Both the position numbers and the translations under genes were made by a program. DNA of 64,000 bases from Escherichia coli O157:H7 (GTDB lineage: Bacteria; Pseudomonadota; Gammaproteobacteria; Enterobacterales; Enterobacteriaceae), in NCBI RefSeq assembly GCF_013167455.1, contig NZ_CP038328.1. One strand, given 5' to 3'. Of the stretch, positions 14,365-56,056 are shown one piece after another. The notes beneath the pieces were generated by a model, which was given only the letters and a program-made list of their open reading frames with translations, was not told the DNA's origin and searched no databases. Every line of letters begins with the position of its first letter. Within the stretch, counting starts at the first letter, position 1.

Positions 14365-14475
14365 GGTCGCTCCTTGCCTGAAGTCATCCTTCAATACGTT
14401 AAGGGCGAAATCATACCGTGGGGCAATGAGTTATTACGGGCGTTTATTGCGAAGGGAGGGTGACGAAATGCACAG

Positions 14476-14504
14476 AAAACAAAAAACCCCGCCGAAGCGG
14501 GGTT
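14476..14504 (-). terminator. Intrinsic terminator of the tRNA operon (downstream of proM)
   Basis: Minus-strand hairpin AACCCCGCUUCGGCGGGGUU followed by U-rich run. Confidence 0.7.
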
Positions 14505-14510
14505 CAAAAT

Positions 14511-14587
14511 TGGTCGGCGAGAGAGGATTCGAACCTCCGACCCACTGGTCCCAAACCAGTTGCGCTACCAAGCTGCGCTACTCGCCG
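14511..14587 (-). tRNA. proM: tRNA-Pro (anticodon UGG)
   Basis: 77-nt reverse-complement match to canonical E. coli tRNA-Pro incl. encoded CCA. Confidence 0.95.
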
Positions 14588-14629
14588 AAATACTGCTTTT
14601 TGAATTTTTAGTTCAATTCTTTAAAGTCG

Positions 14630-14716
14630 TGGTGCGAGGGGGGGGACTTGAACCCCCACGTCCGTAAGGACACTAACACCTGAAGCTAGCGCGTCTACCA
14701 ATTCCGCCACCTTCGC
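14630..14716 (-). tRNA. leuT: tRNA-Leu (anticodon CAG), distal copy
   Basis: 87-nt match to E. coli tRNA-Leu(CAG) with long variable arm and CCA. Confidence 0.93.
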
Positions 14717-14736
14717 ATTGTCACAACTTCTAATAA

Positions 14737-14813
14737 TGGGGTGGCTAATGGGATTCGAACCTCCGACCCACTGGTCCCAAACCAGTTGCGCTACCAAGCT
14801 GCGCTACTCGCCG
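14737..14813 (-). pseudogene. Chimeric tRNA-like element: tRNA-Pro(UGG) 5' body fused at the T-loop to the tRNA-His 3' T-stem/acceptor strand
   Basis: Read 5'->3' on minus strand: CGGCGAGTAGCGCAGCTTGGTAGCGCAACTGGTTTGGGACCAGTGGGTCGGAG (proM-identical) + GTTCGAATCCCATTAGCCACCCCA (hisR-identical); acceptor and T stems no longer base-pair. Confidence 0.85.
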
Positions 14814-14855
14814 AAATACTGCTTTTTGAATTTTTAGTTCAATTCTTTAAAGTCG

Positions 14856-14942
14856 TGGTGCGAGGGGGGGGACTTGAACCCCCACGTCCGTAAGGACACT
14901 AACACCTGAAGCTAGCGCGTCTACCAATTCCGCCACCTTCGC
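14856..14942 (-). tRNA. leuT: tRNA-Leu (anticodon CAG), proximal copy
   Basis: Identical 87-nt sequence to the copy at 14630-14716. Confidence 0.93.
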
Positions 14943-14962
14943 ATTGTCACAACTTCTAATAA

Positions 14963-15039
14963 TGGGGTGGCTAATGGGATTCGAACCCACGACAACTGGA
15001 ATCACAATCCAGGGCTCTACCAACTGAGCTATAGCCACC
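14963..15039 (-). tRNA. hisR: tRNA-His (anticodon GUG)
   Basis: 77-nt match to E. coli tRNA-His incl. extra 5' G(-1) and CCA. Confidence 0.95.
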
Positions 15040-15096
15040 ACTACAAATCTTGTTACGCGGTATTACTACCACCGCAGCTCAAGCGCCGGGACTAAA

Positions 15097-15173
<77 letters not shown>

Positions 15174-15186
15174 TTAGCGCCGTTGC

Positions 15187-15240
15187 GGGGGTGGATAATA
15201 CGGACTTCCCCCCCCTCTGTCTAGTCCCTTTTTAAATAAA
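15187..15240 (-). promoter_or_regulatory. Sigma-70 promoter of the tRNA operon (-35 TAGACA, 17-bp spacer, -10 TATTAT, GC-rich discriminator, AT-rich upstream)
   Basis: Minus strand: TAGACA (15218-15223), TATTAT (15195-15200), then CCACCCCCGC before argX 5' end; inference from consensus. Confidence 0.6.
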
Positions 15241-15275
15241 TTGCGCGTTTGGTTACGGTTTGTGCGTTTTGCTGC

Positions 15276-16661
15276 TTATTCCTCCAGTTTATGCGCTTTC
15301 CCGTGGCGATTAAGGCCAAAAACTTTATAAATCGCCGTCACCGCCAGCATAAAGATGATGCCAACAAACAGCGACATACGCGTATCTTCATTAAAGTACA
15401 TGCCGATCAAAACGCAAATCAGGAATGCCATTGTTACGTAGTTGGCCCACGGGAACAGGATTGAGCGGAACGGATGGCTGGCAATCGCCGCTTTATGTGC
15501 ACGCCGAAAACGCAGCTGGCTTATCAATATCACAAACCATGGCACCATCCCCGGAAGCACGCTGGCACTGTAGACGTAGACAAACACACGCTGCGGATTG
15601 GGAATGATGTAGTTCAGGCATGAGCCAATTAGCAGAATAGCAATAGATACTGCCACACCCGCAACCGGTACGCCGTGACGGGAAACTTTCGCCATCGCCG
15701 CCGGTAACTGACGGTTTTTCGCCAGTGCGTAGAGCATACGTCCGCAACTGTACATGCCGCTGTTACAGCCAGAGAGCGCAGCCGTCAGCACCACAAAGTT
15801 GATAATGCCCGCCGCTGCGGTAATACCGATTTTGGCAAAAGTCAGTACGAACGGGCTGCCGTTGCTGCCTATTTCATTCCACGGGAAGATGGTGACGATA
15901 ACGAAAATCGCGCCAACGTAGAAAATCAGGATCCGCCACAGCACCTTGCCTACGGCACTGCGCAGCGTCACCTGCGGATTCTTCGCTTCACCGGCAGTAA
16001 TGCCAATCAGCTCCACGCCCTGGTAGGACGCCACCACAATACACAGCGCGGTCAGGAACCCTTTCCAGCCACCCGCAAAGAAACCGCCATGCTCTGTGAG
16101 ATTGCTAAAACCAATCGACTGCCCGCCATTGCCAAAGCCAAAGAAAATCACGCCCAGGCCAATGACAATCATCACGATAATCGTGGTGACTTTGATCATC
16201 GCGAACCAGAACTCGATTTCGCCGTACAACCGCACCGCTGCCAGATTCGCCAACGCCACCAGCGCCACTGCGATCAATGCGGGTATCCACTGCGCCATCT
16301 CCGGGAACCAGAACTGGACATAAACGCCAATGGCGGTGATTTCAGAGATCCCCACCGCCATCCACATAAACCAGTAAGACCAGGCGGTGAGATAGCCAAA
16401 GAACGGGCTCATATAACGATGCGCATAAACGGCGAACGAACCGGTAACCGGTTCGAGGAACAACATTTCGCCCATTGAACGCATGATGAAAAAGACGAAC
16501 AGCCCGGCGATGATATAGGCCAACAATACGGATGGCCCGGCCCATTTCAGGGTACTGGCGGCCCCCATAAACAGGCCGACGCCAATGGTGCCCCCCAGGG
16601 CGATGAGTTCGATATGTCGAGCTTCCAGCCCACGCTGTAGCTCTGGTTTGTTATCTGCCAT
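15276..16661 (-). CDS. yifK: Amino-acid permease family transporter YifK
   Basis: 461-aa polytopic membrane [36 protein letters not shown]... (APC-type N-terminal motif). Confidence 0.9.
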
Positions 16662-50477: not shown

Positions 50478-50553
50478 TGGCAGGGGCGGAGAGACTCGAA
50501 CTCCCAACACCCGGTTTTGGAGACCGGTGCTCTACCAATTGAACTACGCCCCT
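50478..50553 (-). tRNA. trpT: tRNA-Trp (anticodon CCA), distal gene of rRNA operon
   Basis: 76-nt reverse-complement match to E. coli tRNA-Trp. Confidence 0.95.
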
Positions 50554-50561
50554 AATTAGGG

Positions 50562-50638
50562 TGGCGGAACGGACGGGACTCGAACCCGCGACCCCCTGCG
50601 TGACAGGCAGGTATTCTAACCGACTGAACTACCGCTCC
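50562..50638 (-). tRNA. aspT: tRNA-Asp (anticodon GUC), distal gene of rRNA operon
   Basis: 77-nt reverse-complement match to E. coli tRNA-Asp. Confidence 0.95.
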
Positions 50639-54000: not shown

Positions 54001-54076
54001 TGGCGTCCCCTAGGGGATTCGAACCCCTGTTACCGCCGTGAAAGGGCGGTGTCCTGGGCCTCTAGACGAAGGGGAC
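54001..54076 (-). tRNA. gltU: tRNA-Glu (anticodon UUC) in the 16S-23S spacer
   Basis: 76-nt reverse-complement match to E. coli tRNA-Glu. Confidence 0.95.
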
Positions 54077-55994: not shown

Positions 55995-56056
55995 TGGTGG
56001 CGCATTATAGGGAGTTATTCCGGTCTGACAAGAGGAAATTTAAAATAATTTTCTGA
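55995..56056 (-). promoter_or_regulatory. rrn P1 promoter with UP element
   Basis: Minus strand -35 TTGTCA (56026-56031), 16-bp spacer, -10 TATAAT (56004-56009), GCGCCACCACTG discriminator; upstream AGAAAATTATTTTAAATTTCCT UP-element-like A/T tract. Confidence 0.85.

Follow-up and report, generated by a model that had tools for sequence, protein, structure and literature searches.

The junction between yifK and the argX tRNA operon of Escherichia coli O157:H7 is very probably made up of the tRNA promoter pArgX, whose upstream region reaches back to the yifK stop codon, of a yifK gene devoid of a terminator of its own, and of yifK transcripts that run on into the tRNA operon. Both the promoter and the yifK read-through are already known from the literature. 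The promoter and its start have been established in K-12, and this promoter has served since 1984 as a model in studies of stringent control, supercoiling and the curvature of upstream DNA; the read-through RNA was described in 2014, in Salmonella. The absence of a terminator and the conservation of the junction come from the present analysis, where the comparison adds an invariant promoter geometry, the lack of a terminator in 70 of 72 Enterobacterales species, and a conserved sequence that ends at the yifK stop codon in Enterobacteriaceae. The position of this end explains why no terminator fits there and leaves the overall picture unchanged.

The window is the whole stretch of DNA that was analysed (64,000 nucleotides), in which the region 14400..15400 is a 100% match to complete E. 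coli O157:H7 chromosomes. According to the RefSeq annotation of an identical O157:H7 genome, yifK/thrP encodes an APC transporter of 461 amino acids, a threonine/serine:H+ symporter, and the genes follow one another on the minus strand in the order wecG, thrP, tRNA-Arg, tRNA-His, tRNA-Leu, an unannotated gap, tRNA-Leu, tRNA-Pro and aslB; the order in K-12 MG1655 is thrP-argX-hisR-leuT-proM-aslB. The yifK stop codon TAA occupies 15278..15276 on the minus strand. The features of the junction and of the operon, together with the source of each, are the following:

16661..15276, minus strand: coding sequence of yifK, now thrP (open reading frame list and RefSeq annotation of the identical O157:H7 and K-12 loci)
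15275..15224, minus strand: yifK 3' UTR, from about -37 to -88 of the tRNA promoter, for which it doubles as upstream activating region (sequence, composition, folds and conservation)
15243..15224, minus strand: A/T block resembling an UP element, GCAATTTATTTAAAAAGGGA, -57..-38 (sequence and conserved A-run columns)
15223..15218, minus strand: -35 hexamer TAGACA, -36..-31 (consensus scan)
15217..15201, minus strand: G-rich spacer of 17 bp (consensus scan)
15200..15195, minus strand: -10 hexamer TATTAT, -13..-8 (consensus scan)
15194..15188, minus strand: GC-rich discriminator CCACCCC (sequence)
15187..15174, minus strand: transcription start at about C15187 and 14-nt 5' leader CGCAACGGCGCTAA (initiating nucleotides of Lyzen et al., 2016, PMC5137449)
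15097..15173, minus strand: argX, tRNA-Arg(CCG), first gene of the operon (ARAGORN, Rfam at 64.1 bits and RefSeq annotation)
15038..14963, minus strand: hisR (ARAGORN, Rfam and RefSeq annotation)
14942..14856, minus strand: first copy of leuT (ARAGORN, Rfam and RefSeq annotation)
14813..14739, minus strand: proM/hisR chimera (ARAGORN, Rfam and the 226-bp repeat of TRF)
14716..14630, minus strand: second copy of leuT (ARAGORN, Rfam, the 226-bp repeat of TRF and RefSeq annotation)
14587..14511, minus strand: proM (ARAGORN, Rfam and RefSeq annotation)
14505..14484, minus strand: intrinsic terminator of the tRNA operon, a GC-rich stem of 9 bp followed by a T run (terminator scan)

A Rfam search of 14400..15400 returned the tRNAs and sub-threshold chance matches only, with nothing in 15174..15300. 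The name argX also turned up in two reviews for an unrelated Lactococcus sRNA, different from the tRNA-Arg gene argX, and these mentions were set aside.

Regarding the tRNA operon itself, TRF delineates a perfect 226-bp tandem duplication at 14525..14987 of the minus-strand operon (2.0 copies, 100% identity), the junction of which falls within GGATTCGAACC, a T-arm sequence common to hisR and proM. The O157 operon is thus ordered argX-hisR-leuT-chimera-leuT-proM as compared with argX-hisR-leuT-proM in K-12, and the duplication adds a second tRNA-Leu(CAG) gene, i.e. leuT. The chimera at 14813..14739 combines the 5' portion of proM (acceptor 5' strand, D arm and UGG anticodon arm) with the 3' portion of hisR; its T stem is cut to 3 pairs, its acceptor stem pairs only in a register shifted by 1 nt, and its Rfam tRNA score is 34.6 bits against 65.8 for proM. 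It is called tRNA-Pro by ARAGORN and in the Sakai annotation (tRNA51), and is left unannotated by PGAP. A junction-spanning query was fully covered in 287 of the 5,426 complete E. coli genomes. The 60 genomes among the matches listed, of these 287, were all O157:H7, O157 or of no stated serotype, and included EDL933, Sakai, TW14359 and 493/89; judging by these 60 of 287 matches, some of them with no stated serotype, the duplication appears to be specific to O157:H7. Two junctions were present in 3 of the 287 genomes, e.g. strain 319 (NZ_CP018241.1), making 290 places in 287 records, which points to a third copy of the 226-bp unit (triplication) and consequently to variation in its copy number. 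A literature search on the O157 leuT duplication found no relevant report.

From the letters alone, the sequence-only reading had proposed a consensus-like promoter, TAGACA and TATTAT, some 50 bp downstream of the yifK stop codon, with an A/T-rich upstream element overlapping the yifK 3' UTR. Both proposals hold: the minus-strand consensus scan locates the hexamers at 15223..15218 and 15200..15195 with a score of 10/12, 52 nt separate the end of the stop codon from the start of the -35 hexamer, and the upstream activating region fills all 52 of these nucleotides. The 17 nt between the hexamers lie within the 16-18 bp looked for with sigma-70 hexamers near consensus, and 21 nt separate the end of the -10 hexamer from the mature 5' end of argX. 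A hexamer match of 10/12 alone is not significantly above chance, however, as the 64-kb window holds 8 sites scoring at least 10/12 for 10.6 +/- 3.4 expected from first-order Markov resamples, and a local scan of 4 kb holds 2 promoter-like sites for 4.0 +/- 2.1 expected. As the hexamer match alone is not significant, a real promoter has to be argued from position, conservation and experiment, and the promoter is real on all three counts, namely its fixed position 21 nt before argX, its invariance in 72 species and its published mapping in K-12. Taken by itself, the chance frequency of matches of at least 10/12 in the window would suit the alternative that TAGACA/TATTAT is fortuitous and that transcription of the tRNA operon comes from another start, or for the most part from the promoter of yifK. 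This alternative nonetheless has next to no probability and can be considered effectively refuted already, since 72 species show no change in the hexamers, in their spacing or in their distance to argX, since the activity is confirmed by DNase I footprinting, by in vitro transcription and by a minimal -40..+5 construct (PMC5137449), and since in Salmonella the wild-type yifK mRNA is undetectable whereas the tRNA precursor of about 500 nt is abundant (PMC3879156).

Elsewhere in the window, two promoter-like sites, TTGTCA-16-TATAAT and TTGACT-16-TATTAT, occur about 120 bp apart at 56031 and 55912 on the minus strand, upstream of tRNA-Glu and, later, of tRNA-Asp and tRNA-Trp (tRNAs at 54001-54076 and 50478-50638). 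From its sequence, this pair resembles the tandem P1 and P2 of an rRNA operon, most likely rrnC judging by the tRNA content, and it is unrelated to the yifK-argX junction.

The TAGACA and TATTAT hexamers are those of the experimentally characterised promoter pArgX, which drives argX-hisR-leuT-proM and for which the UAS, the -35, the -10 and the start site have been described (Lyzen et al., 2016; PMC5137449). In K-12, ppGpp and DksA together inhibit pArgX both in vitro and in vivo, DksA alone stimulates it, the open complexes are very stable, and a -40..+5 fragment keeps the regulation by ppGpp/DksA (PMC5137449). The UAS was shown by experiment in Hsu (1991), as cited in PMC5137449; a strong promoter immediately upstream of argX is mentioned in PMC3879156, with Bossi and Smith (1984) as the source; and the Salmonella hisR promoter appears in PMC8422995 as a classic model for supercoiling and discriminator effects. 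Studies of the pArgX/hisR promoter include those of Lyzen et al. (2016), Figueroa-Bossi et al. (1998), Hsu et al. (1991) and Bossi and Smith (1984).

In the alignment, K-12 and the window are identical over -91..+14 except for one spacer base, so that the K-12 data transfer directly to the window. The spacer base in question, at 15211 (about -24), is a G in O157, where it completes a run of eight G (G8), and a T in K-12 (GGGGTGGG). The G8 run is also encountered in several other genera, and the T-to-G change is probably neutral. Placing the start of transcription at about C15187, +/- 2, fits the K-12 literature: the footprints of pArgX were made with the initiating nucleotides C, then CG, then CGA (PMC5137449), and these sets fit a transcript beginning with CGCAA. 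By our own calculation from the primer sequences, the -265/+135 SmaI-HindIII fragment of the same study agrees with C15187 within 2 nt. The 14-nt leader that follows is removed by RNase P. Just upstream of the start, the 7-nt discriminator CCACCCC has G/C at 6 of its 7 bases, with flanking bases kept across species; a GC-rich discriminator is a feature linked to stringent and supercoiling control, and PMC8422995 reviews what the discriminator does at the hisR promoter of Salmonella.

Upstream of the hexamers, the 52-nt yifK 3' UTR (A 23, C 13, G 9, T 7; A+T 58%; C/G 1.4) is A/C-rich and displays A/T tracts every 8-11 bp. An A/T-rich upstream element at -40 to -60 and beyond is present in the form of the GCAATTTATTTAAAAAGGGA block and of the tracts extending to about -81, and the run TTTATTTAAAAAG adjoins the -35 hexamer on its upstream side. 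The proximal half of the A/T block, AAAAAGGGA, presumably resembles the proximal UP subsite consensus of Estrem et al.

Across the Enterobacterales, an exact-match scan for argX yielded 120 loci, and of the 114 loci whose upstream sequence was long enough, 72 have a YifK homologue directly upstream of argX on the same strand. The geometry T[A/G]GACA-17-TAnTAT-21 nt-argX is invariant in the species keeping yifK upstream (72/72). The motifs CACT[A/G]GACAG and CCGTAnTATCC as well as the leader CCGCAACGGCGCTA are almost invariant across these 72 species, and the spacer varies in sequence among species at a constant length of 17. Further upstream, 67 distinct sequences share conserved A/T columns at about -81, -74/-73, -63/-62, -53/-52 and -46..-42, the A run at -46..-42 being conserved at 0.85-1.00 (0.91-1.00 over -45..-42). 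In the MAFFT alignment, homology ends at about -85, which is the position of the stop codon in Enterobacteriaceae. The gap between yifK and argX is 102-120 nt in the latter family, with 102 nt common to all 32 Enterobacteriaceae loci of that length, and 135-172 nt in Yersiniaceae, Pectobacteriaceae and Morganellaceae, where 35-70 poorly conserved nucleotides are inserted after the yifK stop, ahead of the conserved promoter region. These inserts (in loci L013, L029, L067, L087, L120 and others) contain GGGTGG and GCTG(N)CTTT motifs that recur loosely, and no canonical terminator was found in this sequence by the rule used.

The sequence-only reading had further noted no obvious terminator hairpin between yifK and the promoter, and had concluded that yifK transcripts may read into the tRNA operon. 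The first point is borne out by an empty scan, by unremarkable folds and by 70 clear junctions out of 72 species, and the second agrees with a 2.0-kb RNA seen in a Salmonella promoter-up mutant (PMC3879156). On the minus strand, the terminator scan of 15276..15174 returned no terminator-like site, and the RNA folds of 15320..15174 (-29.9 kcal/mol, z = +1.34) and of 15300..15224 (-8.6 kcal/mol, z = -0.12) have no extra stability over dinucleotide shuffles; yifK and the promoter have no intrinsic (Rho-independent) terminator between them. The same scan makes 14505..14484 the first terminator met by a yifK transcript. When the 72 homologous junctions were scanned with a re-implemented terminator rule and with a relaxed rule, no canonical intrinsic terminator appeared between the stop codon and the -35 hexamer in 70 of the species; the remaining two have marginal terminator-like matches with a 5-bp stem, located inside the conserved upstream block, and the few other terminator-like matches among the 72 loci fall in the coding region or in the promoter spacer. 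The long-gap families (135-172 nt) were also considered as possible keepers of a terminator lost by E. coli, and none was found by this rule.

Downstream of the -35 hexamer, the G8...C5 inverted repeat (15215..15187) might act in the read-through RNA as a cryptic terminator or a pause, all the more as the MFE fold of 15320..15174 pairs GGGGGGGG with CCACCCCC in a helix, the only one seen in the folds, that spans the promoter spacer and the discriminator. Such a role is nevertheless very improbable: the hairpin comes without a U tract downstream, the next bases being GCAACGGCGCUAA, the region taken as a whole folds less stably than its shuffles (z = +1.34), conservation between species does not extend to the spacer sequence, the K-12 G run is broken by a T, and the terminator scan reports nothing there.

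In Salmonella, the yifK mRNA could not be detected in the wild type; a promoter-up mutant was therefore employed, and Northern analysis then revealed two yifK RNAs, one of 1.4 kb covering yifK and one of 2.0 kb extending into argX-hisR-leuT-proM, an extension confirmed with a probe for the argX-hisR spacer (Yang, Figueroa-Bossi and Bossi, 2014; PMC3879156). With no obvious termination signals, the authors suggest that the 1.4-kb RNA arises by processing; the two RNAs build up when RNase E is inactivated, and the tRNAs owe only a small fraction to yifK transcription (PMC3879156). RNase E and RNase P both take part in processing the operon precursor (PMC3879156, PMC2190699). Read-through would likewise take place in this O157:H7 strain, where yifK and the tRNA operon are adjacent on the same strand with no terminator between them; it has been seen directly in Salmonella only, in the yifK promoter-up mutant, and the spanning 2.0-kb RNA is known from Salmonella only. 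For E. coli yifK, the only 3' end in the Term-seq table of Adams et al. (2021) lies in the 5' UTR, and this table may be truncated or may leave out tRNA regions. The 3' end in question, at about 16667 (K-12 3980881), lies 6 nt upstream of the yifK start codon and near the GcvB pairing site of Salmonella, and could result from premature termination or from processing. The SMRT-Cappable-seq supplements mention neither yifK nor argX.

Alternatively, Rho could end most yifK transcripts within the 3' UTR or shortly beyond it, with read-through as a minor leak, in that the unstructured A/C-rich RNA would load Rho once the ribosome has been released at the stop codon. The 52-nt 3' UTR is indeed unstructured, with more C (13) than G (9), and in Salmonella a 1.4-kb species restricted to yifK coexists with the 2.0-kb species (PMC3879156). 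Yet a Rho terminator is expected to offer about 70-80 nt or more of unstructured, C-rich and G-poor RNA; the yifK 3' UTR offers 52 unstructured nucleotides at a C/G of 13/9, i.e. only 1.4, and with the G-rich spacer and the tightly folded tRNAs coming next, this leaves little room for both a rut site and a release zone. Besides, the authors of the Salmonella study trace the 1.4-kb RNA back to processing and the two species build up once RNase E is inactivated (PMC3879156), and the E. coli Term-seq table of Adams et al. (2021) has no 3' end after yifK, which is weak negative evidence. Termination of most transcripts by Rho is therefore unlikely; partial Rho action in the yifK 3' UTR may occur, although it is disfavoured by the short length of the latter and by the RNase E dependence of both RNAs.

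With yifK transcripts reading through the tRNA promoter as the preferred account, RNA polymerase uses TAGACA/TATTAT with its 17-bp spacer, the A/T-rich UP-like block together with the A/T tracts to about -85 functions as an upstream activating sequence, the GC-rich discriminator confers sensitivity to ppGpp/DksA and to supercoiling, and transcription begins at about C15187, 14 nt before argX. As the promoter upstream region fills the entire 52-nt yifK 3' UTR and no terminator would fit without disrupting it, yifK lacks one; for want of this terminator, weak yifK transcripts, under Lrp and GcvB control, would pass through the promoter into the tRNA genes and end at 14505..14484. Processing by RNase P and/or RNase E would then split the yifK mRNA of about 1.4 kb from the tRNAs, and we infer that RNase P cleavage at argX (15174) makes the 3' end of the yifK mRNA. 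In terms of annotation, yifK/thrP should be given no terminator of its own and its transcription unit should be allowed to reach the proM terminator. A much bolder extension, speculative and in our view improbable, is that the terminator-less yifK-argX junction, found in 72 of 114 loci and in several families, has been selected, RNase P at argX providing a dedicated mechanism for the 3' end of the yifK/thrP mRNA and a threonine/serine transporter regulated by Lrp and GcvB being thereby linked to transcription through a stringently controlled tRNA promoter; the 226-bp duplication of O157:H7 with its malformed chimera might then also alter the processing of both transcripts.

Compared with known systems, the promoter corresponds to E. 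coli pArgX and to the Salmonella hisR promoter (argT-hisR-leuT-proM), with the same locus, -35, -10, discriminator, start and upstream activating region. O157 differs from K-12 pArgX by the single T-to-G change at about -24 (G8 run) and by an operon that is 226 bp longer downstream following the tandem duplication. With stable-RNA promoters such as rrnB P1, tyrT and leuV, pArgX has in common an A/T-rich block at -40..-60, a GC-rich discriminator and a negative control by ppGpp/DksA; unlike them, it exhibits unusually stable open complexes and a stimulation by DksA alone, and its -35 is TAGACA rather than TTGTCA with a spacer of 17 instead of 16 bp. The yifK-argX transcript of Salmonella enterica offers the same gene order, the same terminator-less intergenic region and the same terminator after proM, an equivalence of the two junctions that is drawn from sister genera, as the loci retrieved here included no Salmonella sequence. 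Because of the 226-bp duplication, the read-through RNA is predicted at about 2.2 kb in O157 as compared with 2.0 kb in Salmonella. Finally, secG-leuU and thrU-tyrU-glyT-thrT-tufB likewise unite a protein gene and tRNA genes on one transcript that is split by tRNA-processing nucleases; the yifK-argX arrangement departs from both in that the tRNA genes have a strong promoter of their own, which gives nearly all of the tRNA transcription, while the share coming from the mRNA is minor.
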